A DNA stretch of 44,925 nt, taken from assembly GCA_016283195.1 (NCBI GenBank), contig JAEEML010000097.1, positions 1-44,925 on the forward strand, in the 5' to 3' direction. The translations under genes were made by a program, and so were the position numbers. Under the pieces are notes generated by a model. The model was not told the DNA's origin and did no database searches. It saw only the letters and a program-made list of their open reading frames with translations. Below, piece after piece: positions 4,655 to 44,925 of this stretch; the first letter of the stretch is position 1; each line of letters starts with the position of its first letter. Source of the DNA: Deltaproteobacteria bacterium (lineage in GTDB: Bacteria; JAEEML01).

Positions 4655-6421
4655 TTATTGTAAATCTTGAATGGCTTGCCGCGCTACCGGCGCTTCCGGA
4701 TGATTGGGTGCCAGTTGCAAGAAAAGGCGATAATTGTTCAGCGCTTCAGCTTTGTGTTTTTGTGCTCTATGAGCTTCGGCCAGGCCATAATAAGCTTCGG
4801 CATTTTTGCGATTGATATTGATAACTTGCTGGAAAGAGCTAATAGCTGTGGGGATGTAGTTCAAATCAATATAGCACCAGCCGATTCCCAAAAGAGCCTG
4901 AACATTTTGCCCGTTTTCATCGAGTATTTTTTCGTAAATGGCCAGAGCTTCCTTGGTGCGATCGTTCTCACGGTGTTTTTGAGCTTTTCTTAAAAGCTGC
5001 TCGGTGGTTAATGGGGCCGGAGCAGCGGCTTTAGCGGCTACCGGCGGCGGTGGCGGCAGGGGGCGCTCCATTTCGGCTTTCAAAGCGAGCGCCAGCTCAT
5101 TTTGCGGTGAACTGGCCAGTATTTTGGCCACATATTTAGCGGCCTCGGCTTTGGCGCCATGTTCATAGCGATATTTGGCTACAAAATAGAGGGCCGGATT
5201 GTTGGTCTCATTAGCCGGCAGAGCTTTATCCACCATTGAGAGCCCCTCTTTTTCAAAATTTTTGTCATCGAGATAAGCGAGGCCCAAAACCAGCGGCAGG
5301 AGCGGGTCGTCATTTAGAAAATTGAGCGCTCTTTTCACCAGCGGATCGGCCTGGGCAATAGCTTTTTTGTGGCGGTAATAGCCAATCATAGCCCGCATGG
5401 CCAGCGGATTATTGGGCGCCTGTTCTATGGCTTTTCTGGCTAGGTTAAAGGCATCCTCAGAGAGTTTGGCCGCCATGAGGTTCAGTTTTGTTTGCTGTTC
5501 TTGCTGTTCATTATGACTGCTGAGCCAGTAAGCGGCCTCCGATTGCATATCGGCTTTAATTAGTTTGGCTTCGGCCTGCAAAGCCAGGGCATCTGTATAT
5601 TCCGGCTGCAGAGCCATGGCCTGAAAAATGAGCCCCAGAGCATCTTCGATAGCGGCATCATCACCAAGAGCTAACTTGGCTTTGGCGGCGTTTAGGGCTT
5701 CTACGGCTTTGGGGTTTATCTCGCCAACACCCAAAAGAGCGCGCACCGGAGTGATAATAAGGCTTTTAAAAACCGGCGGATTTATTAAATAAAATGCCCC
5801 TGTGCCGGCCATGATAATTAGTAAAAAGACAATTATTACTTTTAAAAAAATGCCGCTTTTGTTTCTTTTTACGGCCCCAAAAGTATTCTCGGCCGGTGTA
5901 TAAATATTGGGCATGGGCATCGGCACCGGCGTATTTATGGTGTTTATTTGCGGAGCCTGCCAAGCGCCGGGAGCCGGGTAAAAGCCGCTTTGCTGCGGCA
6001 AGCCGCCGCCGGCGTAAGGATTAGGCGTATTGTAAGCGGGCGGCATTGGGGCGTAATTATTTACCGGAGCAAATTGCGGCTGTTTTTGGTTGTCCACTGC
6101 TTTAAAAAATGAGGCCAGCTCGGGAATATCGCCCAAACGGCGCCAGGAACTGCCGGATTTGGATACCTGGTCGTCGCGGCTCACCTTTTTTTCGATAATC
6201 CAAGTTTGCAAAGTGGTGAGCTCTTTAAAACGGAAAGTATTACCGTTTACCTGTCTTATTTCCCACTCATCGCTCTGATAAGGCAAGGCGCCGGTGGAAT
6301 TCGGCAGGCAGACATTGAATATCTGCGGGCAGTTAGAGCACTGTACGGCTATGCCTTCCGGGGGAATTTGTGTTTCGTCAAAATCATATTGTGTATGACA
6401 CTGCGGGCAGTGAAATAGCAT
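4655..6421 (-). CDS. Zinc-ribbon (MJ0042-type) + GYF-like domain + TM + TPR repeat protein (GltJ/AgmX-like N-terminus)
   Basis: CPQC..CSNC zinc ribbon, W..L.D.PEL GYF_2-like segment, Pro-rich linker, one TM helix, many TPRs; start moved to ATG 6421, which has a GGAGG RBS. Confidence 0.8.
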   Translation of the reverse strand: MLFHCPQCHTQYDFDETQIPPEGIAVQCSNCPQIFNVCLPNSTGALPYQSDEWEIRQVNGNTFRFKELTTLQTWIIEKKVSRDDQVSKSGSSWRRLGDIPELASFFKAVDNQKQPQFAPVNNYAPMPPAYNTPNPYAGGGLPQQSGFYPAPGAWQAPQINTINTPVPMPMPNIYTPAENTFGAVKRNKSGIFLKVIIVFLLIIMAGTGAFYLINPPVFKSLIITPVRALLGVGEINPKAVEALNAAKAKLALGDDAAIEDALGLIFQAMALQPEYTDALALQAEAKLIKADMQSEAAYWLSSHNEQQEQQTKLNLMAAKLSEDAFNLARKAIEQAPNNPLAMRAMIGYYRHKKAIAQADPLVKRALNFLNDDPLLPLVLGLAYLDDKNFEKEGLSMVDKALPANETNNPALYFVAKYRYEHGAKAEAAKYVAKILASSPQNELALALKAEMERPLPPPPPVAAKAAAPAPLTTEQLLRKAQKHRENDRTKEALAIYEKILDENGQNVQALLGIGWCYIDLNYIPTAISSFQQVININRKNAEAYYGLAEAHRAQKHKAEALNNYRLFLQLAPNHPEAPVARQAIQDLQ

Positions 6422-6515
6422 AGATATAACCTCCAAGGGCGCCGGGGCTCTTAGCCGCGGCCTAGCTGACACTAGCACTAATATTATCTTTGGTAAAGAG
6501 CGCGAAAGGCAATAA

Positions 6516-7223
6516 TTACCAATTGGGATAGAGAGTTGAGCCTTGCCGGCGCTCATGGGCGCTCGGGGTTAAAATAAGCACATTTTCGCGGCCTAAGAGT
6601 AATTCCAGCCGCTCTTTTAAACTTTGCCCCGCTAGGCCGCCCGGGCGGCTCGGCTTAATAGGCAGCTTTTGCTCGGCCGATTCTTTTTGGTCTTCATGAT
6701 TTTCTTTTTGATTTTGCGGGCCTTGCGGAGCTTCTCGCGGCGCTCTGGAAATATTTTCATCATTTCCGGCTTTCGGCATTTGTTCCCGGCTCTCCGCTCC
6801 CCGGCCGCCGGCCTCCCGGGAATTTAACAAAAGAGCCAGTTGCAGATTCTGCGCGGCCAAAGTAAAAGCCGGCTTTAAAATAAGGCTTTTTTTATAAAAG
6901 GTTATAGCTTCTTTGGCCTGCCCGCGGCTTAAAAAATAGTTGCCGACATCATAATAAAATAGAGCATTATCGGCCCCGTCTGCCGAGGGCGGGGTAATAT
7001 TTTCGGCTTTTACCGGCTCTTGGGCCAGATAGAGTTCGGCCAGAGTGCGGCCGTGATTGGTAGCCACTTGGTGATTTTGCGCTGCATCGGTATCAAGGTA
7101 ATGCTCTAACGCCGCCGGCCAATTCTCGGCAGCAATAAGAGCGCGTCCTTTTTGGGAAAATTGGCTCTCTTCGCGGCAGGCGGGTAATAGCAGAATGGCT
7201 AGGATAAGAAGAGCTTTTAGCAT
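6516..7223 (-). CDS. TPR lipoprotein, BatC-like
   Basis: Lipobox LLPAC; TPR YYDVGN..A...YKKSL.L.P....A..NL.LA; low-complexity E/Q/K linker; ends in W. Confidence 0.6.
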   Translation of the reverse strand: MLKALLILAILLLPACREESQFSQKGRALIAAENWPAALEHYLDTDAAQNHQVATNHGRTLAELYLAQEPVKAENITPPSADGADNALFYYDVGNYFLSRGQAKEAITFYKKSLILKPAFTLAAQNLQLALLLNSREAGGRGAESREQMPKAGNDENISRAPREAPQGPQNQKENHEDQKESAEQKLPIKPSRPGGLAGQSLKERLELLLGRENVLILTPSAHERRQGSTLYPNW

Positions 7224-7590: not shown

Positions 7591-10500
7591 ATGAGCAATG
7601 CCATAAGTCAGAGCAGCGGTTATAATCCTTCACTTTATGTAAATACCCAAGCTAATGAAGCGGCCGCGCCGGCGGTAAAAAAGGCCGAAACAGCGGAAGT
7701 AAAAAGTGCCGCCCCGGCTACCGGTAGTGCCGAAGTAAAAGCCGCTGCAAGTGATTCTTTTGCTGTTGCTGATGGCAAAAATCAGCTGGTGACTCCTGAA
7801 AGAAGCCAAGGCGTGGGCGGGGCTTTCGCCAGCGGCTCAGCCGGTTTGGTGCAGGGCGCAGGGCACACCAGTTTGCCGCCGGCCGCCCTTTTGCAACTCG
7901 GTACCCAGGCCGGCAGATTGCTGGATATTGATAAAAATATGAGCCTCTCCGCTTATAATAGCTGCGTAACTGCCAAATTATCCAGCCAAAGCGGCTATTA
8001 TATGCAAGCGCAAAAACAGGCCGGCGAGAGTATTGCCAAAATCGACCAGCATATCGCTTTTTTGCAAAATGCCGAGCCGGCAGACGAAGCTCAGATTGAA
8101 CAACTTGGCCAATTAAAAGAAGTTTTTGGCGGTATTTCTAATATGTACGGCCACCTCATGGAAGCCAAAGGCAAGAGCGAGCCGGCTATGTCCGACCAGG
8201 CAGCCCAGCTTTTGAGTGATATAAGCGGCATATATACGGCTATGGCCGGCCTGGATCCGCGCCTCGTCGGCGAACAGGCATATAATACCATGCGCGATTC
8301 ACTCAGCGATATGGTGCAATTAGCTTCGGCTTATACCATAAGTTACAGCGGCGAGGCCGGGGCTAAAGATTGCCTGGGCGTTTTTGTTGTTAAAACCTTC
8401 CGCCGTTTGCAGCAAATAGAAAATGGCCAGCGCAAACGCGAGAACGAAACACCGGATATAAACGGCGCTTTGCAAACTTATGTCAACGGTTCCAAAGATC
8501 ACCAAATATTTATGCGGCGCTTTGCGGCTATTCGCGAAAAAGCCATTGCCGGCGGCAATACCGATAGCGGCGAGATTATGGCCAGCTTAAAAGAGGCTGC
8601 CAAAGGAACTTCCTCCCGTTTTCAAGAGAGCCTTGAACACCTGGCCGGAAGTTATTCTGCTCTGGCCGATGCCGAAATTCATTTTAAGGAGGCCAAAACC
8701 CAGGCGCAAGCGGCCGGCGTAGCGCTGAAAAATGCCGAAAAAGAGTTCGTTTTGGCCGAAGAAAACCTCATGAAAGCCGATATGGCCGTTAACAGCGGCA
8801 TTGCCGCTATATCTTTGCCAAAAGGTGAGATAAATACGCGAGAACTTGCCGCAAAGGCCCGCGATACCGCAGAAGAGTTAACAGCTATAGCCGGGGAGCA
8901 TATCGAAAAATACGGCGAGTATCGCGAACAGGGCACAATTGCGGCCGAAAAAGCCGTTTTGGAAGGCCTGGCAGCCCGTGCTTCTCTCGAATATGCCGAT
9001 GGCTGTATGCGCGTTTTGGAGTGTAGCCCGCAAGGCAAATATATGAGCCCGGAAATCGCCAAAGTCGATGCCCATATAGCTAAAAGAGATGCCGAACTTA
9101 CAGCTACCGAAAACGATGCCGTAGCTACTCTTGAGCAATTTTCCGTGCTTGACGGTTATGTCAGCGACTTAATGGCCGGCAGCAAAGATATTAAAGAAGC
9201 TCTATCTGGCCTCGATATTGATATTTCTGTCGATGCCATGTTGGAAGAGTCCATTAAATTAGGCACTAAAGGCGTTGATGCGGCTTATTCCCGCATTCTT
9301 GGCACAGTGCTCGGGAGCGGGGTAAAAGTTTCCGATGATTTAAGGCAATACCTAAAGGATCCGGCGGCGTTTTTGGCCAAAAACCCTGAGGAGGCCGGCA
9401 ACGTGCGCGAAGAAATGGAAGACCTCTTTGCCGACCATCCCGAACTGACAAATCAAGTAGCCGGGGCCATAAATTCGCTGCGCAATGATTTTGCCGTAGC
9501 TCGCCGTGAAGCCGAAGCCACGCTGATTAAAAACGGTAAAGATCCTAAGAGTGATCCTTATGCCCTCATGCTGGACGGCATGGAAAATAGCCTTCTGGAC
9601 GGCCTATTTGCTAAAAATGAGCACCTTTTTGCCGCCATGTTTGCTTCCGGCACCGAGAGCAGCGCCGTTAAAGGCACCATAGATTGGGTGCAGGGATTGC
9701 AAAAATCTATGACGCAGCACACGGTTACCGATGCCGGCCTGCGCCAGAAAGCCATAGATTCTTTCAATAATATGCTTAATGGCAATGAGAATCTGAAAGC
9801 TAGTCTCGATAAGCGCATAAAAGAATACGGCCAGCCGATCTCTACAGAGTGTTTCGCTATTACTTCGGCCGGCGGCCTGCCAAACGGCACAGTAAATGTT
9901 TATGTCTTTAAAAAAGATGGCGAATTTAAAGCTCTTGACCCCATTACCGGCGATGTTTACAGCGGGAAGAGCAAAGATGAAGCTCTGGCCAAACTGGCCA
10001 GGAAAGTTGAGTGGTCTGAGGGCGAAATCAGCTATCTTGATAGTGCCGGCAAAATGAAAAATGTGGAAATGCACCTGCCGAGCAAAGCCTTGGAAGTGGG
10101 CGCCGATATCGGTATGGGCGTCGTCGGCCTGGTGGGCGGCATTTTGTGTTTTGTCCCGGTGCCGGTGGCGGCGCAGGCGGCCGGCACAGCTTGTATAGCG
10201 GCCAGCGCCTCTTATTTTATTGCTAAAGGCGCATACAATATCGGCGAGCAGGTTTCCCGCGAAAACTTTGATTTGAGCCGCGAAGAGAGCCGCCAGGCCT
10301 TGATTGATTTGGCCTCCGGTGTCTTAAGCTTTGCCGGCGGTGTGGGCAGTGCTGCCAAACTTACCTCGACGGCCGGCGGGATCACCATAAAAGGTACCAC
10401 TATGCTGAATAATGCGAACAAAGTGCAAAGGTTTGTGCGCATTACCAATATCGGCAGCCGGGTAGGCAGTGCCTCAAATGTGGGCTATGCCGTGGTGGAT

Positions 10501-10629
10501 ACAGGCTTCCAAGTTGGCGATATTGTTGGTAATAATGAGCTTTCAACAACTGAAAAAGCCAAGCAGATAGGCGTTATTTTGCAAAACTTGCAAGTGAATT
10601 TAGCCGGGGCTGTGGTGGATATGCTCTAA
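7591..10629 (+). CDS. Large hypothetical protein, paralogue 1 (helical core, C-terminal membrane hairpin, possibly DUF4781-like; candidate T3SS substrate)
   Basis: Long ORF; GAGGTG RBS before ATG 7591; no signal peptide; Ala/Ser-rich N-terminus; collinear similarity to 10762..13968. Confidence 0.85.
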   Translation: MSNAISQSSGYNPSLYVNTQANEAAAPAVKKAETAEVKSAAPATGSAEVKAAASDSFAVADGKNQLVTPERSQGVGGAFASGSAGLVQGAGHTSLPPAALLQLGTQAGRLLDIDKNMSLSAYNSCVTAKLSSQSGYYMQAQKQAGESIAKIDQHIAFLQNAEPADEAQIEQLGQLKEVFGGISNMYGHLMEAKGKSEPAMSDQAAQLLSDISGIYTAMAGLDPRLVGEQAYNTMRDSLSDMVQLASAYTISYSGEAGAKDCLGVFVVKTFRRLQQIENGQRKRENETPDINGALQTYVNGSKDHQIFMRRFAAIREKAIAGGNTDSGEIMASLKEAAKGTSSRFQESLEHLAGSYSALADAEIHFKEAKTQAQAAGVALKNAEKEFVLAEENLMKADMAVNSGIAAISLPKGEINTRELAAKARDTAEELTAIAGEHIEKYGEYREQGTIAAEKAVLEGLAARASLEYADGCMRVLECSPQGKYMSPEIAKVDAHIAKRDAELTATENDAVATLEQFSVLDGYVSDLMAGSKDIKEALSGLDIDISVDAMLEESIKLGTKGVDAAYSRILGTVLGSGVKVSDDLRQYLKDPAAFLAKNPEEAGNVREEMEDLFADHPELTNQVAGAINSLRNDFAVARREAEATLIKNGKDPKSDPYALMLDGMENSLLDGLFAKNEHLFAAMFASGTESSAVKGTIDWVQGLQKSMTQHTVTDAGLRQKAIDSFNNMLNGNENLKASLDKRIKEYGQPISTECFAITSAGGLPNGTVNVYVFKKDGEFKALDPITGDVYSGKSKDEALAKLARKVEWSEGEISYLDSAGKMKNVEMHLPSKALEVGADIGMGVVGLVGGILCFVPVPVAAQAAGTACIAASASYFIAKGAYNIGEQVSRENFDLSREESRQALIDLASGVLSFAGGVGSAAKLTSTAGGITIKGTTMLNNANKVQRFVRITNIGSRVGSASNVGYAVVDTGFQVGDIVGNNELSTTEKAKQIGVILQNLQVNLAGAVVDML

Positions 10630-10646
10630 AATATTGCCCGGTAGGC

Positions 10647-10673
10647 AAAACTTATTGAGAGTTCTGCCGATAA
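10647..10673 (+). promoter_or_regulatory. Putative sigma28 (FliA)-type promoter
   Basis: AAAA-N15-GCCGATAA versus the consensus TAAA-N15-GCCGATAA; intergenic, upstream of paralogue 2. Confidence 0.45.
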
Positions 10674-10761
10674 CTAAGCGAGTGCGCTACTTGCGCGTGC
10701 TTTGCATTTTGTGATATTTAAGCTACTTATTGCCGCGCGTAAGCAGAAAGAGGAGCTTAGC

Positions 10762-13700
10762 ATGGGAACGCAGATTACAAATCAAGGTGCTCTTTACAAT
10801 TCCGCTATTTATCAAGGGGAGCCTTTAGAAGCGGCCGCTCTTGAAAAGAGCGCACAAGCTGAAGTTGCCATAGAAGCTCCTGCGACTCCGGCAGCTAATG
10901 CTGCTCCCGTTACTGATTCTTTTACTACGGCCACAGAGGCCGGTAAGGCAGTAAAGCCCTTAGCTAACCAAAGCACTGCCGGCGCTTTTGCTCCCACGGC
11001 GGCCGGGCAGGTTCAGAGCACCCAGGCAGCCGGTATTAACCCCTGTATTTTGCAACAATACGGGCGTGAACTTTCCGATGCTCTTGACATCGGTAAATCC
11101 ATGACGGTGGCAAATTATAATAATTGCATGAAAAAGCTCTCCGGGCAGAGCGGCTATTATATGCAAACTAAGGCTAAAGCCGAGAATACTCTAAAAAGTA
11201 TCGAGCAGAATATTGCCTCTTTGCAAGGTAAAGATCCGGTTGATGAAGCGCAGTTAAACCAGCTTAAAGAGCTTAAAGAACTGGCTGGCGGCGTAGTTAC
11301 TTTGTATGGCCATTTGGCCCAAGCCGGCGGGGCGAGCGAAACGGCCCGGGCTGAGCAAGCAGCCGTTTTTATGCAAGATATAACTGCCTTGCAAAATGCC
11401 ATGCTGGAGCTTGATCCCAACCTCATAGGCGACCAGGCATATACCTCTATGCTGGCTTCCATGCGCGACATGACCGATCTGGCTTTTGCTTTTTCCACTA
11501 TTAAATACAATGAAAATACCGGGACTCCCAGTAAACTTTTAGGCGCCTTTGTTTTGCAAACTTTCCGCCGCCTGCAGCAGATTGAAAAGGGTGACAGAAA
11601 GCGGGAAAACGAAACGGCGGATATAAGCGGTGCCCTCAATACTTATGCCAACGATGTGCGTGATTGGGGACAGTTTATGGCTACTTTTGCCGCTACCCGC
11701 CGCAATGTGGTTGAAAACGGTATTACCGATGAGGCCGAAGTTGCTGCCATGCTGAAAAATGCGGTTAAGGGCACTTCAGAGCGCTTTCAGGCCAATATGG
11801 ATCTTTTAGCCAAAACTTATGTTAATCTGGCTGAAGCCGAAATGCATCACAAGGTAGCCAAAGAGGAATTAAAAGCCGCTCAGGAGGCCCTGAAAAACGG
11901 CGAAAACGAGCTCTTAGCTTCGCAGACTGATTTGCTTAATGCCGATATGGCCGTGAGTGCAGGAATAGAATATATCTCTCCCCGCTCTGCCGTGCAAAAG
12001 CAGCTCACCCGCGCCGATGCCGAAAATGCCCTTTCTACGGCTTCTGACCTTAATGCCTCGGCTAAAGTCCATATTGATAATTATCGCGAATATAAAGCGA
12101 CAGGTGAAGCGGCTGCCACTCGGGCTCATGCCGAAGCTACTGTAGCCGAAAACAGCCTTAACTTGGCGGAAAATTGGAATAATTTGGTAAAAGAAGGGCC
12201 GCAGGGCAAATATTTCCAAAAAGAGACAGGCGCAATTGATGGCGAAATTGCCAGCCAAAGATGTGATCTTGCGGCTATTAAAGATGGCGCCGGAGAGATT
12301 GTAAAAGAGTTTAGCAGGCTTGATGCTTTTTCGTATGATCTTTTGCAACAAAGAGATTATATGGCGCAAAAGATTTTGGGGCTTGATGTCGGTATTTCCA
12401 CCGATAAGCTGATGGAAACCGCCGGTGAACTGGGCACTAAAGGCGTTGATACCGCTTATGATCGTATGCTTGCGGTTATTAAAGCTTCCGGAGCCAAAAG
12501 ATCGGCCAAACTTGATAGTTTTCTAAAAGATCCCGAAGGCTTTTTACAAAAATTTCCCTCCGAAGAGGGCAATATGCGCAAAGAGCTCACCGAACTTTTT
12601 GAGGATAATCCCGCTTTGGCCGATAGCGTAGCCCATGCCATAAATGATATGCGCGTGGATTTTAATGCTTTGCGCCGGGATTTGGAAAACAAAGTGCGGC
12701 AGCTTGGCGAAGACCCGAAAAAGGGGCGCTTTGCCACTGTTCTTGATGTTACAGAAAACACGCTTTTAAATGGCCTTGCAGCCAAAAATCCCCTGCTTTT
12801 CACAGCACTTATGAGCTCAGGTAGTAAAAGTGCCGAGGTAGCTAAAACCGTAAGCTGGATGCAAGATTTGCAAAAGTCCATGATTCGCCACACTGTGGGC
12901 AACGAAGGACTCAGGCAGCAGGCCATTGAGAGCTACAACAGAATGCTCGAAAGCAACCCGACTGCGCCGCAAAAGGTTAATCTCGATAAGCGCATTGCCG
13001 AATACGGCCAGCCTGTGGCTACCGAATGTATCTCGATTTTCCAGGGCCAGGGTTATCTTAACGGCAACATGAATATACCGATCTTCAAAAAAGACGGTAA
13101 ATATCTGGCTCTTGACCCTTATTCCAATAACATCTACACCTCGGCCACCAAAGAGGGAGCTATGGCCGCTTTAGCCGCCGGTGTTAATTGGGTAGAAGGC
13201 CAGGTGAGCTATCTCGATAGCCAAGGTAATGTTAAAGTGCAAGATACCCATTTGCCGCCGGATACTCGGGTGAAAGATATAGCCTTTGGCGTGGCCGGTA
13301 TAGTGGGTGGCATTATATTGGTAGCTATACCTGAGCCCACTATGGTGACTAAAGGAGCCGGTGTGGCTCTCATATCATCCAGCGCAGCTTATTTCCTAGA
13401 TAAAGGAATACGGGAAATCAGCGATCAGGTTAGCCATGATAATTTTGACCTTTCACGCCCGGAGAGCCGGGCCGCTGTTATGGATATCGTATCCGGTGTA
13501 ACCACTCTGGCCGGCGGGGCCGGTAGTCTTCTTGGCACCGGTGCTTCTACTGTTGGCCGAGTAACCACCGGAGTTAAAGTGGCCGGCGCTCTCAATAATA
13601 CCGCCAAATTCGGCAATATGTTGAATCTTGGCTATACAACTCAGGAAAATGTCCTGACGATGATTGACGTTTGGAACAATAATTCGCTATCAACAGGCGA

Positions 13701-13968
13701 AAGATGGTCACAAACAGCTTCCCTGGTGGGCGGAATATGTATGGCCGGCGCCTCTTGCTCCGATACCTTTATGTCGCATGCCCCAACGGCCAAAAGTGCT
13801 ACATTGTCACTCGGTTTAGCCGAAGGCAATGTGGCTTTGCAAACCGGTGAAGCCCTTAATAATTCCTATAATTCAGGCGACCTTTTATCTTCTGACAGCA
13901 ATTCTTTTGTAAATGAAGATTTGCGCATAATTATGAATTGGGCCAATGGCGGGCAGCCGCTTAAATAA
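10762..13968 (+). CDS. Large hypothetical protein, paralogue 2 (candidate T3SS substrate)
   Basis: AGGAG RBS before ATG 10762; shares blocks KLS.QSGYYMQ, TFRRLQQIE.G.RKRENET, LGTKGVD.AY and LDKRI.EYGQP..TEC with paralogue 1. Confidence 0.85.
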   Translation: MGTQITNQGALYNSAIYQGEPLEAAALEKSAQAEVAIEAPATPAANAAPVTDSFTTATEAGKAVKPLANQSTAGAFAPTAAGQVQSTQAAGINPCILQQYGRELSDALDIGKSMTVANYNNCMKKLSGQSGYYMQTKAKAENTLKSIEQNIASLQGKDPVDEAQLNQLKELKELAGGVVTLYGHLAQAGGASETARAEQAAVFMQDITALQNAMLELDPNLIGDQAYTSMLASMRDMTDLAFAFSTIKYNENTGTPSKLLGAFVLQTFRRLQQIEKGDRKRENETADISGALNTYANDVRDWGQFMATFAATRRNVVENGITDEAEVAAMLKNAVKGTSERFQANMDLLAKTYVNLAEAEMHHKVAKEELKAAQEALKNGENELLASQTDLLNADMAVSAGIEYISPRSAVQKQLTRADAENALSTASDLNASAKVHIDNYREYKATGEAAATRAHAEATVAENSLNLAENWNNLVKEGPQGKYFQKETGAIDGEIASQRCDLAAIKDGAGEIVKEFSRLDAFSYDLLQQRDYMAQKILGLDVGISTDKLMETAGELGTKGVDTAYDRMLAVIKASGAKRSAKLDSFLKDPEGFLQKFPSEEGNMRKELTELFEDNPALADSVAHAINDMRVDFNALRRDLENKVRQLGEDPKKGRFATVLDVTENTLLNGLAAKNPLLFTALMSSGSKSAEVAKTVSWMQDLQKSMIRHTVGNEGLRQQAIESYNRMLESNPTAPQKVNLDKRIAEYGQPVATECISIFQGQGYLNGNMNIPIFKKDGKYLALDPYSNNIYTSATKEGAMAALAAGVNWVEGQVSYLDSQGNVKVQDTHLPPDTRVKDIAFGVAGIVGGIILVAIPEPTMVTKGAGVALISSSAAYFLDKGIREISDQVSHDNFDLSRPESRAAVMDIVSGVTTLAGGAGSLLGTGASTVGRVTTGVKVAGALNNTAKFGNMLNLGYTTQENVLTMIDVWNNNSLSTGERWSQTASLVGGICMAGASCSDTFMSHAPTAKSATLSLGLAEGNVALQTGEALNNSYNSGDLLSSDSNSFVNEDLRIIMNWANGGQPLK

Positions 13969-30028: not shown

Positions 30029-30116
30029 AAATCTAAAAGATTGTTTTTCGCTTTATTTATATATATTGTTACCCCCGCTTGGAAGTGTCTCGCTTTTTAG
30101 AGAGAGGGAGTCCGCA

Positions 30117-31115
30117 GTGAAGCGTAATTTGAAAAAATATCTATCGTTATTGGCCGCCGCTATGTTGTCTTCTACTTTCGCAGCTTGCGAAGTAGAAGAG
30201 GTTATTCATGGCCTTGAAGAGCGCGAAGCCAATGAAATACTTGAACTTCTTGACGCCACCGAGCCGCCGATTGAAGCCAAGAAAATGAAAGAGGACGGCC
30301 GTATAGTCACTTACAAAATTGTGGTGCCTGCCCGCTTTAAGATAGATGCTTATAAGGTGCTCAATAAGCATGAACTCCCCAGAAAGCAGCACAAAGGTTA
30401 TAACGAAATATTTGCTCAAGCCGGCCTTATTCCCACCAAAGCCGAAGAGCAAGCCAAGAGCCTCGCCGCTATTCAGGGCGAAGTGGCCCGTTCATTGCAA
30501 CTCATTCCCAATGTGCTGGAAGCCGAAGTAAATTTGGTTATTCCCGAAGAAAATCCTCTGGCTAACCCCGGTGATGAAAAATCGAAGCCCTCGGCTTCCG
30601 TTACCTTGAAGTATTTGCCGGTAAACGGCAAGCCACCGGCCGAAAAAGAAGAAGTACAGCGCTTGGTTGCCGCTGCCGTCAAAGACTTGGTTCCGGAGCG
30701 CGTAGAAGTTTTTATGGCCGTATCCACCAAAGTGCAACAGGCAGTGGAAGGCGCTGAGGGCGGAGCTCCAGGTGTACCGGCCGCCTGCCCGATAACAGCG
30801 GCGCCGATAAGCATTTGTAACGGTGACAAAGAACCGGTGCGTCTCATGGGCCGCGTTATGTGCCCGGAGGCCGCCAGCCTTTTCAAAATGCTCATAGCCG
30901 TTTTCGTGGTTTTGCTCCTTTTGATGGGCGGTGGTCTCGTAGTTTTGGTCTTAAGAGCCAATGCCGTGAAGAGCAAATTAAATCGTTTGCAATCCGAGCT
31001 GGCTTCCCGCCGTCGTCGCGGTACAGCGACTGCCGGCGGTATGGGTAACGGCAGTATGCCGGCTCCGGCCGCCTCCGGCCTCAATGCCGAAAATGTTGAG
31101 GGCACAAGTCACTAA
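30117..31115 (+). CDS. sctJ: Type III secretion inner-membrane ring lipoprotein (YscJ/HrcJ/CdsJ family)
   Basis: Lipobox FAAC; HGLEEREANEILELL; GLIPT..E....L.A.QGE.ARSL..IP.VL.A.V.LVIP; PSASV.LKY; LVAAAV.DL.PE.VEV; C-terminal TM; GTG start with GGAG RBS; too short for FliF. Confidence 0.9.
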   Translation: MKRNLKKYLSLLAAAMLSSTFAACEVEEVIHGLEEREANEILELLDATEPPIEAKKMKEDGRIVTYKIVVPARFKIDAYKVLNKHELPRKQHKGYNEIFAQAGLIPTKAEEQAKSLAAIQGEVARSLQLIPNVLEAEVNLVIPEENPLANPGDEKSKPSASVTLKYLPVNGKPPAEKEEVQRLVAAAVKDLVPERVEVFMAVSTKVQQAVEGAEGGAPGVPAACPITAAPISICNGDKEPVRLMGRVMCPEAASLFKMLIAVFVVLLLLMGGGLVVLVLRANAVKSKLNRLQSELASRRRRGTATAGGMGNGSMPAPAASGLNAENVEGTSH

Positions 31116-31154
31116 AAAACACTTACCGGCGCTTTTGAGCCAGAGTAACCATAG

Positions 31155-32204
31155 ATGCACCAGAGCTTTTACCCGCTGACTTCCAAACAATATATGCTGC
31201 TTATTACCACCATGACTATGGGCGGCAGCGAGTCGGCCGCGCTCTTTCAGTACTTGCCGGAGGAAGAGCAAAAGCTTTTAACCGAAAAGGCCGAACTTTT
31301 GACCAAAATTCCCTCGGCCAAGCGGGTGCCCTTTATGGTTATGGAGATGAAAGAGGAGCTAAAAACACTGGGCCAGCATGGCATGGAATATGTCGATCCT
31401 TCGTGGATTGTCTATTCTTTAAAAGGCGAATTGCCACGTGTTTTGGCTAATCTCCTCTTTGAACTGCCGCCGCCTCTCGTGCGCAAATTGGTGGAGCGTA
31501 TTCCCGGAAAAGTGCGCGAGCACTTGCCGGCCAAGGACGAAATCGAAACGGTTTCTCCGGAGCTTAGGAGTGCGGTGCGCTATCTTTTTGAGAACAAATT
31601 TCACGAGATGCCGCGCACCATGCGCCGCCAGTTTGTCTTTGCCAATATTATTCTGCTCGATCGCAAAGATTTAGCTACTCTGATTCGTATTTTGGGGCTC
31701 GAAGAGCTGGCCCAGGCTTTTATCTCTGTGGGCAAGCAGGCTTTGGCCGAGCTCTGCCGTTCACTCCCGCGAGAGAAGGCCGAAGAGCTCATTGAAGTAG
31801 TGCGCCGCGTGGATAAAGTTGACCTTATGGACTTAAAAACGGCCCAGCGCTTTTTGGCCCGTGTTTTGCAAAATTTCAAAGATGAAGAGGACTTATTCCG
31901 CCGGGCCGGCATTTTCCGCCTTTCTAAAGCCGCTCTTTTGGAAGACCGGCCTTTCCATTTGGCTATGTCGCAGCGCCTGCCCATCGAACAGGGCAAAATA
32001 TATCTTGATTATGTGGATAAAGCGGCTGAAATAGCCGAATGGCAAGAGGCAGTTTTAAAGCGCCTGCAAAACAATATTTTTGATAAAATAAAAGCTCTTT
32101 CGGCTCAAGCGCTTATTTCGCCGCGTTATGCCAATTTGGATTTTGCTTATCACCAAATTACCGCCGACGGGGCGGAAGGCGGTGCGCCGGCCGCTGAGGC
32201 TTAA
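31155..32204 (+). CDS. sctK: Putative T3SS sorting-platform protein (SctK/FliG-like)
   Basis: Lies between sctJ and sctL; cytoplasmic and helical; VDPSW resembles the H.SW motif of SctK-like proteins; LGL.ELA.A segment. Confidence 0.55.
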   Translation: MHQSFYPLTSKQYMLLITTMTMGGSESAALFQYLPEEEQKLLTEKAELLTKIPSAKRVPFMVMEMKEELKTLGQHGMEYVDPSWIVYSLKGELPRVLANLLFELPPPLVRKLVERIPGKVREHLPAKDEIETVSPELRSAVRYLFENKFHEMPRTMRRQFVFANIILLDRKDLATLIRILGLEELAQAFISVGKQALAELCRSLPREKAEELIEVVRRVDKVDLMDLKTAQRFLARVLQNFKDEEDLFRRAGIFRLSKAALLEDRPFHLAMSQRLPIEQGKIYLDYVDKAAEIAEWQEAVLKRLQNNIFDKIKALSAQALISPRYANLDFAYHQITADGAEGGAPAAEA

Positions 32205-32227
32205 CAACCTAACTTTGGAGGCCTTTT

Positions 32228-32986
32228 ATGTCTAAAATAATCAAATACACCGATTCCGAAGCTTTGCCGGTAACAAGTGTTCCTTTTACCTCCTCCACCC
32301 AGGTAACCAAGCGCCCGGTTATCGACCGCGATGTTTTTAATGCCAAAACCGAAGCGGCCCGTATTTTGGAACAGGCCCACGAGCAGGCAGCGCGCATTAT
32401 CGACGATGCCAATGCCCAAGCCGAGAGCACCATTGCTAGGGCCAATGAAGAAGCGGCTATGATTATGCCGAATGCCCAGGCCGAAGCCGAAGCGCTTATT
32501 GCGCGGGCCAATGAGGAGTCGGCAGAACTTAAAGCCACAGCTGAGGAGCGCGGTTTTGCCGAGGGCAAGGAGGCCGGTTCGGCCCAGCTCATAGAGCTGA
32601 TAGCCAAACAAACCAAAGAATTTAGCGACTTTTGCGGGACACTTGAGCAGGAGATTTTAAGGCTCACCCTCGCTATAGTGCGCAAAGTTATTTCCGAAGA
32701 GTTGGAAGAAGGCTCGGATATTGTGGTAAAAATCACTCAAAGAGCTTTAAAAACCGTGCGTCAGCGGCGCGAAATCACCATTCGTACCAATCCGCAGGAT
32801 ATGCTCACTTTGAAGGAGCATAAGCGCGATTTGTTAGATGTTTTGAGCCGCACCAAGGATATTGTTTTTGAAGAAGACCCAGCTATTTCTGCCGGCGGCG
32901 TTTTGATTGAAACGGAGGCCGGGCGCATTGATGCCCGCCTTGATACGCAGCTGGCGGTATTTGAAAAAATTTTTGCTGCCCATTAG
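32228..32986 (+). CDS. sctL: T3SS stator protein (SctL/FliH/HrpE family)
   Basis: Ala-rich coiled coil, ERGFAEGKEAG (GxxxG), IRTNPQD, DPAISAGGVLIETEAGRIDARLDTQL. Confidence 0.9.
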   Translation: MSKIIKYTDSEALPVTSVPFTSSTQVTKRPVIDRDVFNAKTEAARILEQAHEQAARIIDDANAQAESTIARANEEAAMIMPNAQAEAEALIARANEESAELKATAEERGFAEGKEAGSAQLIELIAKQTKEFSDFCGTLEQEILRLTLAIVRKVISEELEEGSDIVVKITQRALKTVRQRREITIRTNPQDMLTLKEHKRDLLDVLSRTKDIVFEEDPAISAGGVLIETEAGRIDARLDTQLAVFEKIFAAH

Positions 32987-33045
32987 TCCCTTTGACCGCG
33001 GGGCATGCTTGGCCTCGGGAATACCGGCCCGGCGGCGAATTAAAT

Positions 33046-33075
33046 TTGACTAAGGAGCCCGATAAGTGCTAAAAC
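33046..33075 (+). promoter_or_regulatory. Putative sigma70 promoter (extended -10) for the PEGA gene
   Basis: TTGACT-N18-TAAAAC with TG at -15/-14. Confidence 0.4.
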
Positions 33076-33121
33076 AAAAGAGCCTTTGTTGGGCCTTGCG
33101 TTTGCTGTAGGAGAGCTGCAG

Positions 33122-34714
33122 ATGAAAATTCCATTTAACAGACATTCGCTAATATCTTTGGCTGCCATTGCTTCTTGTTTGGCTATATTGCCCTCAAAAT
33201 CGGCCTTGGCCCAGGATAGCTCTATTATTGCCGTGGTGCATGCTTCCGACCCGGCAGCACAAAAGCCGGCTGCTTATGCCAAGTATTATATAAGAAATTA
33301 CTTCCAGGCCGACAGCCGCTATGATTCTGTCGAAATAGATAAAAAAATAGATGCCTTATCGCAACAAACGGCCGCCAAGCAGTTGCAACTGGCTGCCGAA
33401 ATGGTGCAAAAAGGGCGCGAAGCTTATGACAGCTTGGAGCTCGACCAAGCTATCGACTTTTTGCAAAATGCCATAAGTAAATATGAGCGCAATGTCTCTT
33501 ATCTGGATTCCACGCGCCCGCTCTCCGATGCTTATATAGCTCTCGGTGCTTCTTATATTTTGCGCGGCGAAGAAAAGACCGGTAAAAGAGCCCTTGTCAG
33601 CGCTATTCATATTGACCCTCTGGCCCAGCCAGATCCGCGTATTTTCAACCCCTCCATGATGGAAATTTTCAACGATGCCCGCGATGAAGCGCAAAATTCT
33701 CCGCGCGGAGCCGTCAATGTTATTTCCAATCCCGGTTATGCCGAGGTGCACTTAAACGGCAAATTTATCGGTGTTACCCCACTTAGCAAAGGCGATATCC
33801 CCAGCGGCAGGCAAATTTTCCAGTTGCGCCAGGATGGTTACCGCACTTACGGGCGCGTGGTTGATTTGGCTCCTCATACCGAAGAGTCCATTTCCGGCTC
33901 GCTGGAAGCCACTGCCGAAGCCGCCCGCCTTCGCGATATGTACAGCCGCGCCATCAAGCAAATAAACAAAGAGACTATGGCCGATAGTATCCGTGAGCTG
34001 GCCAGCTATTTCCAGGTTAATAATATTTTTGTTGCCGAGGTGGCTCTTGAAGGCGAAATGGTGGTTCTCACCGGCGCCCAATATAGTGTGGCCACCGGTC
34101 AGCGAGTGAAAATTGCCAAGACGACCTTCCTTTTTGATGCCGAACAATTTGAATATTCAGTGCAAAAATATATGAATGCCAATTTTTCGGCCGAAAATCT
34201 AAATAAGCCCAGCATCGAAGATCAGGGCGATAAATGTGTTTCCGGCCAATGTGCCGATGGGCGCCTTTGTACTGCCGACAGCGATTGTGCCGGGCGAGTC
34301 TCCAGCACCAAACCCAAAAAAACTGGCTCCCCAATGCCCACTATGAAAAAGGTTCTCGGTTTTGGTCTTTTGGGCGGCGGTGCCGGTGTGATGCTTATTG
34401 GTGGCGGTCTTTGGATCGGCGCCGGGAGTAAAGCTTATATTATTAAAGATCCAAAGCAAAAACCTCTTTATTCCCAGCGGCAAATTAAGGATTTTCAGAG
34501 CAGCGGTAAAGCTATGGCTGTAGCCGGTGATGTTCTCTTCTCCATTGGTGCTGTTGCTGCCGTGGCCGGCGGAGCTTTGCTCCTCTTTTGGAATCCCAAG
34601 CCGAAAACTTCCACTGCTGTCGGTGGCACCGAGACGGCCTCAGCTGTTACTATTTCCGGCAGTTTAGCACCGGTGCAAGGGGGCGCTTATCTCTCCATGC
34701 AAGGAACTTTTTAA
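33122..34714 (+). CDS. Secreted TPR + PEGA domain protein with C-terminal Gly-rich hydrophobic hairpin
   Basis: Signal peptide ending ALA; TPR helices; PEGA V.SNP..AEV.LNGKF.G.TP; two Gly-rich hydrophobic helices; ends YLSMQGTF. Confidence 0.82.
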   Translation: MKIPFNRHSLISLAAIASCLAILPSKSALAQDSSIIAVVHASDPAAQKPAAYAKYYIRNYFQADSRYDSVEIDKKIDALSQQTAAKQLQLAAEMVQKGREAYDSLELDQAIDFLQNAISKYERNVSYLDSTRPLSDAYIALGASYILRGEEKTGKRALVSAIHIDPLAQPDPRIFNPSMMEIFNDARDEAQNSPRGAVNVISNPGYAEVHLNGKFIGVTPLSKGDIPSGRQIFQLRQDGYRTYGRVVDLAPHTEESISGSLEATAEAARLRDMYSRAIKQINKETMADSIRELASYFQVNNIFVAEVALEGEMVVLTGAQYSVATGQRVKIAKTTFLFDAEQFEYSVQKYMNANFSAENLNKPSIEDQGDKCVSGQCADGRLCTADSDCAGRVSSTKPKKTGSPMPTMKKVLGFGLLGGGAGVMLIGGGLWIGAGSKAYIIKDPKQKPLYSQRQIKDFQSSGKAMAVAGDVLFSIGAVAAVAGGALLLFWNPKPKTSTAVGGTETASAVTISGSLAPVQGGAYLSMQGTF

Positions 34715-34732
34715 GCTTGAAGGAGTTAAATT

Positions 34733-35539
34733 ATGAAATCCTTTGATAGATTACCGACTTCTTTAATATGTGCTCTGCTCTTGGCGGGCTGTAGTGCCAA
34801 TTCGGCTTGGAATCCGGACCAAATCGATGGAGCTAACTGCTCCAAAGATAAATGTGATGATGGCTACTCTTGCGTAGTCACCAAATGTGTGCGCCATAAT
34901 TCCCTGGGTTACAAAGAAACATGCCTCGATAACATCTCATGCAAAGATGGTCTGGTTTGCCCGCCCAGAGTATTTGCCTGTCGTAAAGAGTGCAGCAATT
35001 ATTATAGCTCTGATTCAGCTTGTAATGAAAGTAATGTTTTCTGTGCCCCTCTTTACACCAGCGACGGTACTAAATTTTTGAATACCGGTGCCTGTCTGGA
35101 TGCTCAATGTACAGCTAAAAAAGCCGATGCCAAAGCCGGTGATACTGTTTGTGAAAAGGGCGATTGTGTGCTCTTTAAAACACGCGTAGGCAGCTGCTTT
35201 AAAGAGTGTACTTATACCATCGGCGAAGACGGTGCATATAACGATAATCTGGAAACACAAGGTAAAACCTGTCACCCAGTGGGTAGTGGTGATAATCAAA
35301 CACTGGTGGAATGGCCGAGTGGCACTAAGCTCCAGGGTGAGCCTTGCGATCAATATAGTGCTCCCTGTGCCAAAGGCCTGGTGTGTATAAAAGGCACCGG
35401 CATTTCTAAATCCTGCCACAAACTTTGCTCCATTAATGGCGCTCAGCACCTAGGCTGCGAGGCTGATCAACAATGTTCGCAAGCCAAAGGCTATAGTTTC
35501 TGCTCTTCCGTTTCCGGTGATTCCAGTACCGATCGCTGA
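34733..35539 (+). CDS. Cys-rich lipoprotein
   Basis: Lipobox LAGC; C..GLVC repeats; AAGGAG RBS. Confidence 0.8.
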   Translation: MKSFDRLPTSLICALLLAGCSANSAWNPDQIDGANCSKDKCDDGYSCVVTKCVRHNSLGYKETCLDNISCKDGLVCPPRVFACRKECSNYYSSDSACNESNVFCAPLYTSDGTKFLNTGACLDAQCTAKKADAKAGDTVCEKGDCVLFKTRVGSCFKECTYTIGEDGAYNDNLETQGKTCHPVGSGDNQTLVEWPSGTKLQGEPCDQYSAPCAKGLVCIKGTGISKSCHKLCSINGAQHLGCEADQQCSQAKGYSFCSSVSGDSSTDR

Positions 35540-35581
35540 TTAGTCTTGATAAACCTAATTAAAAGTACTATTATTCGCCCG

Positions 35582-35597
35582 TGTGATTTTAGTCACA
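35582..35597. promoter_or_regulatory. CRP-family consensus site (alternatively a terminator stem)
   Basis: TGTGA-TTTTAG-TCACA, just downstream of TTGATA-N17-TATTAT (35546-35574). Confidence 0.5.
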
Positions 35598-35659
35598 CTG
35601 TTTTTGAAAAGAATTGTGTATAGAAATAAGCGTGTTGTTTCTTTAACAAGGAGGAAAGA

Positions 35660-38600
35660 ATGAAACGATTGTCTTATTTGCTTTTAGCCGGCCTTCTCGC
35701 CCTGGGCACTTATAGCTGTAAGGGTGATGGGGATGATGGCGAAAACGGCGAGAACGGCCAAAATGGCCAAAACGGCCAAAACGGCCAAAGCGGTAAAAAC
35801 GGCAAAAGTGGTAAAGATGCCGGTAACCGCCACATTATTCATGTCGAAGCTATCGATGAAGAAGGCGCCGATAACGACGACACCGTAGTTGTTGATTTTG
35901 CTCAAAATATCGACACTCTCACCGATGCGATGGCTGACAGCACCATCACCTTCTCTTATGGTCACCGCAAAGGCTTTACCATGACACCGGATACCGATTG
36001 CGGCTCTGTGGCTGCTGACGGTACTTTGATTCTCAATACTTGGTATGAAATGGAACAGATAGGTTCTAATAAGGATAACCCCGGTGACGGTATTATCGGA
36101 GCCAGCTCCTGCGCTTTGCTTTATACTTCCACCGTACTCAGAACTTACGATAATGGTGAAGTAGAGGAATTGGCTAGAGCTTTAAATAATGCCATCGGTA
36201 TTACCGATGCTTTCCAAGTCTATCGCGCCTGGGCTATTGATGGCCTGGGTAATTGGAGCAGCTGGAACAATAGCTTTGAAGGCAACAATGAGAAGAATGG
36301 TAATGATTATGTTTACATTTGTGCCAACAAAGATATTCCGGTTACCCACTTTGACGAAGATGGCTTAGATGTCGGCACCACTATTGTTATTCCGCCCTTT
36401 ACTTTGATTGATGCTTTTGGCAACGGCAATGCTGCTACAGTCATCACCCTTATGGACGGCGCTGCGCTTGAAGATCAAGCTGAGCCAGAAGGCCTGGAAT
36501 TTGATCCTCTTAAATATACTAATGATTCCAACGAGAATTGCCAATTGGAAGCAGGTAGATCATATGTCCTTTGCTTTAACCAGAAAATGGATGTAGATAG
36601 CACCATGTATGCTTTAAAGCGTCGCTTGGAAGAGCATTCGCTCATGCAAAAAGCTAATGCTGAAGCCACTATTACACCATCTGGTGCTGGTGATTGTTTT
36701 GTTTTTAGTCCTAACAGAGTAGTTGACCTCTGGGGTCTTGCCGATCCTAAACCTGATATGAATAACAATATGGTAGAATTTGCCAAGTGTGAATTGGTGC
36801 TGGAACTCGAGCAATGGGATGTTACCAATGCTTATGGCGTTACCAACAGTAATGAGAAAATAGTCTTCCATATTACCGATATTACGCATCCTATGCTTAT
36901 GTACCAAACTGCTCATATTGATGATTATAAAAATAACAGCACATTTAACGGTGGCGAGCAATTCCCCTATGAGTATGATTCTTTTGAAACCAATAAGAGT
37001 GAAAAAGAGACTATAGAGGTAACTTTGGGTACTTTTAACGGTATGGATCTGCCGCGTCCCGAAAACCGTTATCTCATTAAAGATGACGTACTATTCATGT
37101 TTTTCTCTGAAGCGGTTCAAAAGAAAATTGGCGATAATGCTGATGCTCTTAAAGAGCTTATTTTTGAAAAATTTGCTCAAAATGCCGAAAAACAAAGCGG
37201 CTCCAATTGGAGCAGCGCCACTAAGGATGAGGTAAAGAGTGCCGGCGGCTTTACTTTTGATCCCCCTTCCGGTGATCTCATTCTAAGTGTAACATATACG
37301 ATACCGTCTGGTATCCGCATCGCGGCTAAAAAAGATTATATTTATAATTCCAGCGCTTTTTCCAATGACCAGATAGTTGATGCCAAAGACAATGCTCCGG
37401 TGCAACAAGTTGAACCAAGGGACTTCTTGGCTACTACCAATAACTGGATTGTGCCGCCTGCCTTAGTGCCGCAAAATGTTGATACCGAGACCGGTGCTTT
37501 TGATACCATAAAAGTGGTTCTTAAATCTGCTCCTGCCGGCTCCGGTGACACCTTTAGAACAACTCGTGAAGACATCACTTTGCAACCCCAAGATCAAATC
37601 ATTGTGGTCTTTAACAAAAAAATGAATGTTTCCGTAACTAAAGCCCATTTGGCTTGGGTTATCGGCCATGGCTCTTTGGATGGTGCTCAGCGCTTTGCTC
37701 AAGATCCCAACGATCCAAATCAAAATGCGCAAGCTGTCGATGGTTTTACTATTGCTGATTATCAGATTGATACACCAATTCCTTGGACGACTGATGATCG
37801 TACCCATACTTTTGTGATTACTCTGGCAAATGGCCAGTACATCAAAATGAGAGACGGAGCTGAAAAAATGACTTTCAGCATGGCTCCTATTGCTACAGAT
37901 CCCAATAAAGATTATATTTCTATGGATACTGTGCGCCTCCATGTTGATGAAAATGAGCCCTTATCTGTTCGCCGTGAGAATGTTGACTTCCCCATTCCTC
38001 CAACTTTGGAAGAAGTTACTTGGACTTATGGTGGTGACCGCTATTGCGGTAACGATACAGCAGAAGCTAAGGATACGATTACATTTAAATTCAGTGAACC
38101 GCTTGATAACGTAAAATCACTGAATAGCTGCTATGGTGTAACCGGTAAGTCTTCGGTAGAATGTGTGAAAGTTGCTATTCAAAAAGCGCTCACCAAACTG
38201 GTTATCGACGGCGGCCGTGCCGAAGTTGGGAGCAAAAATTCCGGTGATTGGGAAAATTACAATTCCGATCCCAATAACAAATGGGTTGTTGATGTAACTG
38301 CTGCAGCCGGTAATGCTGAATTTGTAGCTACTATCAAAGATGATGTAACTTATAACCCAGACAGCAATTTAACTGCCAGCAACCACCCGCGCTTCAGATT
38401 TAGCGGTAGCCAGCCCATTAATTTTGAATTCCCGGCCGAAATAGTGGTAGATGCCAACGGCATTGTAGCTAAAGAAGTTAAAGCTACTCTTGATCCCTTT
38501 GATCACCTCAATATGGAACTCACTGTGCTTAACAATGTGCAAGAAAACGATGGCAAATTTGTGGCCAATGATTCCTTCATGATTACCTTTGATTGTGCAA

Positions 38601-39097: not shown

Positions 39098-39155
39098 GCA
39101 TTCCTTTTGACCACTCTCATCTATTAGCTACAAATATTAAAATTCATTGAGCTGA

Positions 39156-39204
39156 GCCCCTCCCCAGCGGGGAGGGGCGATTTTTATAAAAATCCAATAA
39201 GTTA
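39156..39204 (+). terminator. GC hairpin + T-run (terminator-like), copy B of the intergenic element
   Basis: GCCCCTCCCC-AGC-GGGGAGGGGC followed by GATTTTT; 26/28 match of 39177-39204 to 23728-23755. Confidence 0.6.
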
Positions 39205-39303
39205 TGCGGAGAGCCCCTAGAAAAGCGCTATAACTATCTTTTAAAGATCTTTCTCCTGTGTTATTTTAATTTTTTGGCCGTTTTGGCGGCCTTGGAGAAT
39301 CTT

Positions 39304-40566: not shown

Positions 40567-40584
40567 CTTTTTCCTTAGGAGTAG

Positions 40585-42250: not shown

Positions 42251-42257
42251 GCAAAAT

Positions 42258-44492: not shown

Positions 44493-44925
44493 ATGAGTGC
44501 AATCGGCAGTGGAATGGGTCCACAAATTAATCCCTACATCGGTCAGATTGGTAATGAACAGCAAATTCAGCAAACCGGCAATCTTGGTAAATCCAATAAA
44601 ACCGCCGGTATTACCGGTAAGAGCCCTCTGGATGTCGGTTTTGAGCGCGGCAAAGGCAAAGTGGCCAGTGAAGTGGCCCAAAAAGCCGGTCAGGTACGCA
44701 ATCCCATAGTGGAAGCTGATGAATCTTTTGTGGATTTTGATGCCGGCGTTGCCAAAAGCGCCAGCAAGTCATCTCTTTCTGCTGCTTTAAGCTTGGAAGA
44801 TTTCGACCCTAATGAATTTGGTGGCAATAAACTGAGTAATGCCGCTACCGGTATTTTAGAATCCAAATTCTCCGCTACCGATGCCGATGTAGCTAAATTG
44901 CAAAATATGGCCGATTCTATCGTCC
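44493..44925 (+). CDS. Hypothetical protein, truncated by the window end (not in the ORF track)
   Basis: GGAGG RBS at 44482-44486; ATG 44493 is open to the end: MSAIGSGMGPQINPYIGQIGNEQQIQQTGNLGKSNKTAGITGKSPLDVGFERG... Confidence 0.75.
   Translation, partial: MSAIGSGMGPQINPYIGQIGNEQQIQQTGNLGKSNKTAGITGKSPLDVGFERGKGKVASEVAQKAGQVRNPIVEADESFVDFDAGVAKSASKSSLSAALSLEDFDPNEFGGNKLSNAATGILESKFSATDADVAKLQNMADSIV

Follow-up and report, generated by a model that had tools for sequence, protein, structure and literature searches.

What do two adjacent, collinear genes of more than 1000 codons each encode, when neither product matches a recognised family and type III secretion genes lie further along the same contig? 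The question is raised by genes A and B on a 44,925-nucleotide (nt) contig of a Deltaproteobacteria bacterium (JAEEML010000097.1, assembly GCA_016283195.1, forward strand); this whole stretch is called the window below. A sequence-only reading had taken both products for type III-secreted pore-formers or effectors. On balance we lean, with modest confidence, towards a different answer: A and B would be toxin-less paralogues in a rare family of large alpha-helical polymorphic-toxin carriers, with a hairpin that would enter a target membrane. The point absent from the earlier reading is that relatives carry C-terminal nuclease or deaminase toxins which by sequence comparison are interchangeable, and that neither A nor B has one. 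The family is best filed within the polymorphic toxin systems, type III export being possible.

7591..10629, + strand: gene A, open reading frame (ORF) from ATG 7591, 1012 amino acids (aa); carrier-family protein lacking a toxin, 2009 bits to the family profile
10762..13968, + strand: gene B, ORF from ATG 10762, 1068 aa; paralogue of A, longer at its C-terminus by about 70 residues

Two paralogues and their toxin-bearing relatives

Both start codons (ATG 7591 and ATG 10762) were preceded within a few bases by a Shine-Dalgarno-like GAGG. Proteins A and B were aligned by BLASTP with 436/1004 identities (43%; E = 0), collinearly over A 6-997 and B 7-989; all sequence blocks quoted for the pair in the earlier reading lay in this alignment, and its description of two adjacent collinear paralogues stands. 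Identity was 35% over residues 1-95, 40-51% in the core and 24% over the last 82 aligned residues.

Relatives were collected by an exhaustive HMMER scan of 1,835,955,588 representative proteins with a profile of A and B, which returned 35 proteins at E ≤ 0.001, 33 of them besides A and B; 17 of the 35 reached E ≤ 1e-30. The carrier family is very rare, a claim made because of this exhaustive scan and not of a word-index protein search, which is uninformative on rarity (among the matches listed, A itself was the only one, both with A alone and with a 38-row alignment). The nearest relatives were just 25-28% identical to A and B, and a scaffold of about 900 residues was conserved in the 33 other proteins. 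Where a source is named, P0010, P0011 and P0041 came from metagenome-assembled genomes (MAGs) with the label Myxococcota, and P0018, P0034 and P0043 from MAGs with the label Candidatus Sericytochromatia. In the window's own genome (G000) a family-profile search found A and B only, and none was found in 40 other genomes, which are kin to it at domain level only. Contig searches with two family alignments, one on genome contigs and one on metagenome contigs, gave no locus; those with P0043 and with another family alignment gave one locus each.

Polymorphic-toxin domains above the Pfam cut-off were present in 8/33 relatives and belonged to four Pfam families, all following the same scaffold:

P0005, P0017, P0018, P0019, P0021: Ntox30, above the Pfam cut-off
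P0006: Toxin-deaminase (BURPS668_1122-type), above the Pfam cut-off
P0015: YwqJ-deaminase, above the Pfam cut-off; a weak match also in P0009
P0016: DUF3626, above the Pfam cut-off

A further relative, on a metagenome contig (locus L010), matched EndoU weakly, and NCBI gives two members the name 'polymorphic toxin type 30 domain-containing protein'. The toxin domain lay near the C-terminus in 7/8; the exception was P0021, with Ntox30 at 1243-1318 of 1939 residues and about 620 residues after it. The homologues thus share one carrier region but differ in their C-terminal toxin domain, as in polymorphic toxin systems. In an eight-sequence alignment, A ended directly past the final block of the conserved scaffold and B some 70 residues further on, while the toxin-bearing relatives extended 300-900 residues past the scaffold, with a linker and then the toxin. 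Since both proteins stop at the end of the scaffold, they are toxin-less forms.

The same absence could mark both genes as decayed or domesticated carriers which have lost their toxin/immunity cassettes and have no attack function, or another, structural one. This is doubtful in our estimate. Both toxin and immunity gene are missing at A and at B, B has a short unrecognisable tail where relatives carry a linker, and the last aligned residues have drifted to the low identity given above. Against decay, however, both frames have stayed intact over more than 1000 codons despite divergence to 43% identity, and every family-invariant residue is kept in A and B. Near-identical pieces of both genes (95-100%) were found in short contigs from 4 public runs of 4 studies (gut or sheep metagenome labels), and 29 of the 40 listed strain differences fell at third codon positions in the frame of either gene (binomial p = 5e-7); purifying selection therefore acts on both genes. 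These contigs measured 150-540 bases, and the best DNA run contained 0.24 of the sampled words. The contigs showed no alternative C-termini or joints (only one run reached the 3' end of B), and no RNA runs were among the public runs listed as matching A or B.

Scaffold anatomy and a putative delivery mechanism

The structure of A was modelled with AlphaFold from 38 aligned sequences, with a mean predicted local distance difference test score (pLDDT) of 76 and values mostly >80 over residues 93-832; an earlier model from a 2-row alignment (mean pLDDT 52) was discarded. The following parts were delimited:

7591..7875, + strand: disordered Ala/Ser/Pro-rich N-terminus, A 1-95 (composition); pLDDT <50 over 1-92, variable in the family
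7879..8598, + strand: helical domain 1, A 97-336; holds the TFRRLQQIE.G.RKRENET block (model)
8614..9315, + strand: elongated three-helix bundle, A 342-575; helices 342-408, 416-477 and 482-575, pLDDT mostly >90
9334..9828, + strand: helical domain 2, A 582-746; family-invariant P591, P617 and W699
9841..10071, + strand: small alpha/beta domain, A 751-827 (model); pLDDT about 80-97
10087..10257, + strand: glycine-rich hydrophobic hairpin, A 833-889; hydropathy maximum 2.18, pLDDT <50 in the monomer model
10282..10623, + strand: glycine-rich amphipathic helices, A 898-1011; invariant A903, D906 and G910, end of the conserved scaffold
13264..13356, + strand: equivalent hydrophobic hairpin, B 835-865 (BLASTP alignment, hydropathy)
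13729..13968, + strand: tail of B past the scaffold, about 990-1068; aligns loosely to the pre-toxin linker of relatives

Several structural claims of the sequence-only reading were borne out here. The first 100 residues contained 23 Ala, 13 Ser, 10 Gly and 6 Pro in A and 25 Ala, 5 Ser, 7 Gly and 7 Pro in B, and this composition, together with the lower A/B identity there than in the core, agrees with the divergent Ala/Ser/Pro-rich N-terminus it had described. An N-terminal Sec-like hydrophobic core, which it had found missing, was absent from A and B as judged by hydropathy alone, and the N-terminus of A is a candidate non-Sec export signal. Its long helical core corresponds to the all-helical stretch of the A model (residues 97-746), within which lie helices of 67, 62 and 94 residues, and its late hydrophobic hairpin to A 833-877 and B 835-865: hydrophobic stretches occurred late only, at these positions and at A 903-922 and B 906-924. 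Domain 1 and the start of the long bundle are the part shared with a short subfamily that has no hairpin. The alpha/beta domain of A was built from strands 751-759, 766-775, 778-782, 789-792, 811-816 and 822-827. In the hairpin, P856, Y875, F876 and G880 were invariant over 18 sequences 19-44% identical to A, and P858 was nearly so (≥90% of the 18); hairpin and amphipathic helices together (A 833-1011) were modelled at low confidence. The tail of about 70 residues in B matched no domain in Pfam or NCBIfam.

Known families and folds were searched with both proteins. At E ≤ 1, Pfam gave no family for A and three unrelated sub-threshold matches only for B, and NCBIfam gave nothing credible for either; PHROGs gave 0 families at E ≤ 0.01 for A, B and 3 relatives. 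No translocator, ClyA or colicin family was found in the 33 relatives (Pfam, E ≤ 0.01); the translocator families in question are the SseC/YopB and IpaB/SipB types, PF16535 among them. Foldseek with the A model returned nothing from the PDB at E ≤ 0.001, and VIA-align, with a stated noise level for helical models of roughly Z 13, returned generic helical bundles only (residues 338-558, best Z 13.1). ClyA (6mrt_A; Z 10.0, 217 aligned residues, root mean square deviation 4.4) and AhlC (6h2d_P; Z 8.7) scored within that noise level. Two further sets of PDB sequence matches were discarded: one match to A alone at E 0.33, taken as chance, and DotF (E 3e-5, 84 residues), tropomyosin and HA2 obtained with the family profile, rejected as compositional coiled-coil look-alikes. 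Scores in a protein language-model atlas were all <0.9 (DUF4781 0.84, PT-TG 0.81, DUF4225 0.80, SipB 0.80 at rank 30) and serve as leads only. The A/B carrier is without a relative in Pfam, NCBIfam, PHROGs or the PDB, and it was described in no title or abstract among the literature listed on Ntox30 and on polymorphic toxins with flagellar type III systems. Of the undescribed membrane-attack family proposed in the earlier reading, the new family and its tie to attack on other cells are supported, but membership in the SctE, ClyA or colicin class is not demonstrable.

The same searches bear on two further explanations. That A and B are phage tape-measure or housekeeping coiled-coil proteins, which the earlier reading had named as a refuting outcome, is suggested by their large size and long helices only and is hardly credible: no PHROGs family was matched, no phage genes were found in the window, relatives are fused to toxins and the family is extremely rare. 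Colicins, in turn, combine a disordered translocation segment, a long coiled coil and a C-terminal killing module, a layout that parallels A and B. If A and B were colicin-like bacteriocins released by lysis, the hairpin region would be the pore former; the missing signal peptide (by hydropathy) and the nuclease-type C-termini of relatives are in keeping with this. We nevertheless regard it as very improbable, for no colicin family was matched in Pfam (E ≤ 1) and no fold was matched, neither a lysis nor an immunity gene lies beside A or B, and the hairpin is conserved 5' of the toxins in relatives. Because of that conserved position upstream of the toxins, the hairpin is not itself the variable killing module; together with the missing immunity gene this favours 'delivery module' over 'killing module' for the hairpin region.

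For a carrier of this family the following sequence of events may be proposed. The protein would be made without a Sec signal, and a dedicated non-Sec route, recognising the disordered N-terminus, would export it. As a spacer or reach element the long three-helix bundle could serve, and the invariant glycine/proline-rich hairpin would insert into the membrane of the target cell. In toxin-bearing relatives, insertion would bring the enzyme at the C-terminus into the target cytoplasm, where its nucleic-acid substrate lies; Ntox30, being a predicted metal-independent endoRNase (Zhang et al. 2012, PMC3482391), must reach the target interior. A and B, having no enzyme, might damage the membrane directly as a pore or play a supporting part, as a helper or as a subunit of a translocon.

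Several findings weigh against this proposal. Neither a toxin domain nor a candidate immunity gene accompanies A or B, whose flanks are a 132-nt gap between them and a 95-nt gap from B to the next gene; no small ORF there would fit an immunity or chaperone gene. A recognised toxin was absent in 25/33 relatives (Pfam), and about 15 of these (870-1060 aa) form the hairpin-less subfamily, which matches the N-terminal half only (profile positions about 130-550). On account of both, the family may not be uniformly toxic. Membrane insertion is suggested by a hairpin modelled at pLDDT <50, and none of RHS, LXG, PAAR or haemagglutinin repeats was found in A, B or relatives (Pfam, and NCBIfam for A and B).

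The type III apparatus and the question of export

The surroundings of A and B and the type III genes of the window were as follows; the gene 3' of B encodes an ABC-F ATPase.

4655-7223, - strand: tetratricopeptide repeat (TPR) lipoprotein (BatC-like, below cut-off) and MJ0042-type zinc-ribbon/transmembrane/TPR protein, divergent from A
10680..10702, + strand: terminator-like hairpin between A and B (from a consensus scan only, with 14 sites of this kind where shuffled sequence predicts 10.8)
30066-31115, + strand: SctJ-like type III gene
31155-32204, + strand: FliG-like type III gene
32228-32986, + strand: SctL/FliH type III gene

The earlier claim of type III genes in the window was confirmed by the last three. 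They start 16 kb past B, with unrelated genes between, and a link to A and B is unproven. Genes for PEGA-domain and cysteine-rich lipoproteins follow them. Elsewhere in the genome, SctV scored 835.8 bits, over its equivalog cut-off of 692 (the FlhA model stayed under its own cut-off), and was 75-84% identical to NCBI-labelled SctV of Myxococcota or Deltaproteobacteria MAGs; also present were SctU, SctR, SctQ/FliM-N, FliO and an SctP/FliK-like protein, together with SctN/FliI as a fragment at a contig end. This genome, estimated 100% complete, yielded neither a flagellar rod nor flagellin, and no type VI secretion system (T6SS) sheath (TssC) was found in it or in genome G041. The Sct-type genes were spread over at least 5 contigs and mixed with the flagellar-type FliG-like, FliO and FliM-N fusion genes; both Sct clusters (window 30066-44327; C58:13217-19699) were flanked by PEGA-domain proteins and cysteine-rich lipoproteins. 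The type III apparatus of the genome is atypical.

A candidate substrate and a candidate targeting signal were also noted in this genome. A 268-aa protein on contig C94 (C94:3973-4779; L049 883-1689) had a C-terminus weakly like a needle family of type III secretion systems (T3SS; 25.8 bits, cut-off 29.4) and is a candidate for an extended, needle-like protein exported by the Sct apparatus; its N-terminus, MVNSIHGSGNG..., resembled the MSAIGS class. In that class, four otherwise different signal-less proteins shared nearly the start MSAIGS or MSAISG, followed a few residues on by N-P-L/Y: the ORF ending the window's type III-linked cluster (44493-44924, + strand, past the window end), a transglutaminase-like/barrel pair and a Peptidase_C39_2-like protein (C31:36987(-), C31:35213(-) and C65:21440(-)). 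A position matrix added starts of the form M-[SV]-x-(G)-I-[SG]-G on contigs C57, C150, C130 and C110, and the motif was absent from flagellar rod N-termini of L010 and G041. Such a start may be a lineage-specific N-terminal targeting signal. In this matrix A ranked 125 and B 4391 of 22,466 starts, a weak resemblance for A and none for B.

The view closest to the sequence-only reading is that A and B are substrates of this Sct-type apparatus, as translocator-like pore formers or effectors, and that the whole family is type III cargo. We consider this rather unlikely, although a number of observations speak for it. An Sct-type apparatus is present, in part 16 kb from B, in a genome where neither a flagellar rod or flagellin nor a T6SS sheath was found. 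In an independent lineage, at L010 (and at L038 of G045, arranged almost identically), only 2 kb separate flgB-flgC-fliE-fliF-fliG-fliH from a full-length toxin-bearing relative of 1717 aa, after which comes an overlapping FHA-domain gene. Relatives at L041 and L046 have a small TPR gene immediately 5' of them, and those at L039 and L005 a weakly TPR-like one. SctV is 75-84% identical to proteins of Myxococcota-labelled MAGs. No effectors are known for the needle-less T3SS* of Myxococcus (PMC10433427, PMC12075869). Finally, among 401 genomes sampled from the phylum of the Sericytochromatia MAG, FHIPEP was present in 8/8 family-positive genomes against 214/393 others; since the family-positive genomes are related and FHIPEP is common there, this is suggestive only.

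Other observations stand against type III cargo. No translocator profile matched A, B or relatives, and LcrH/SycD-type models missed the small TPR proteins at E ≤ 0.01, none of which adjoins A or B. Type III or flagellar genes lay within 20 kb at only 2/11 independent loci, and no type III or flagellar domain was found in 68 neighbours of 8 short-subfamily loci. The 8/8 genomes with FHIPEP are kin and not independent, and FHIPEP is common in that phylum (55%). The likeness, seen by eye, of the A N-terminus to the MSAIGS class failed a leave-out test, in which a hidden Markov model built without A and B missed both at E ≤ 1.

A wider version sees in the family the cargo class still missing for needle-less or otherwise atypical type III systems of uncultured Myxococcota-like and Sericytochromatia bacteria: self-translocating toxin carriers, with bare forms such as A and B as the translocon. 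Such proteins would be exported via an Sct or flagellar-type gate, enter a neighbouring bacterium by their own hairpin and deliver a nuclease or deaminase. We hold this to be unlikely; if true, it would make the family the first of polymorphic toxins tied to type III export and provide concrete candidates for effectors of the myxobacterial-type T3SS*.

Further features were noted at the loci of relatives. Most family-positive genomes (G045, G066, G096, G111, G120, G156) had two full-length FHIPEP proteins, at about 905-910 and about 850-855 bits, and the two score classes suggest two type III-type gates per genome. Small unrecognised ORFs lay 3' of relatives (289 aa at L005; the FHA protein at L010). 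At the short-subfamily loci L039-L046 (G066, G096, G156, G041, G111), a 120-149 aa ORF overlapped the stop codon at 7/8, a 413-457 aa protein without assignment and a DUF5939 protein (614-629 aa) adjoined at 3-4 loci, and a 93-118 aa TPR gene lay directly upstream at 2. At L005 (2071-3730; Sericytochromatia), two small proteins encoded 5' of the toxin gene had papain- or NlpC-like Cys/His motifs by eye and matched no Pfam family; one of them starts MSGIQNNN, resembling MSGINIST of the toxin.

Comparison with known systems

With the translocators of T3SS (SctE: SipB/IpaB/YopB), A and B share the lack of a Sec signal, a body made of helices or coiled coils and, late in the sequence, a hydrophobic helix pair. 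They differ in being two to three times longer, in matching no translocator profile, in having neither an adjacent TPR chaperone nor a partner translocator and in lying 16 kb outside the apparatus genes; their relatives instead bear antibacterial-type toxin domains. With the alpha-pore-forming toxins ClyA and AhlC, the modelled elongated helical bundle of A may be compared, at fold scores within the noise level for helical models that concern residues 338-558 only; no sequence family was matched. Should export nevertheless be of type III, two fields with little overlap would be joined, and candidate effectors for needle-less T3SS* machines would be at hand.

A parallel in logic is offered by type VI secretion, where 'evolved' and plain VgrG/PAAR proteins represent one delivery module, bare or with a C-terminal toxin extension. 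The likeness to the A/B family is one of analogy only, as there is no sequence or fold relation and TssC was not found in G000 or G041.

Polymorphic toxins are classed by their carrier, which sets the secretion route and the target. As in the systems described in the relevant sections of PMC3482391, A/B homologues combine a conserved N-terminal and central region with swappable catalogued toxins; A and B themselves differ by having neither toxin nor immunity gene. Their carrier region is none of the trafficking modules catalogued in those sections, in which Ntox30 is tabulated with T2SS, T6SS, T7SS (types II, VI and VII secretion systems), TcdB/TcaC and RHS repeats. The carrier occurs in uncultured lineages only, its source-named members being Myxococcota and Sericytochromatia MAGs. 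Because it has no database relative and exists both with and without toxins, it would add a new helical delivery module of about 900 residues to the polymorphic-toxin catalogue, together with a natural comparison of one carrier with and without payload.

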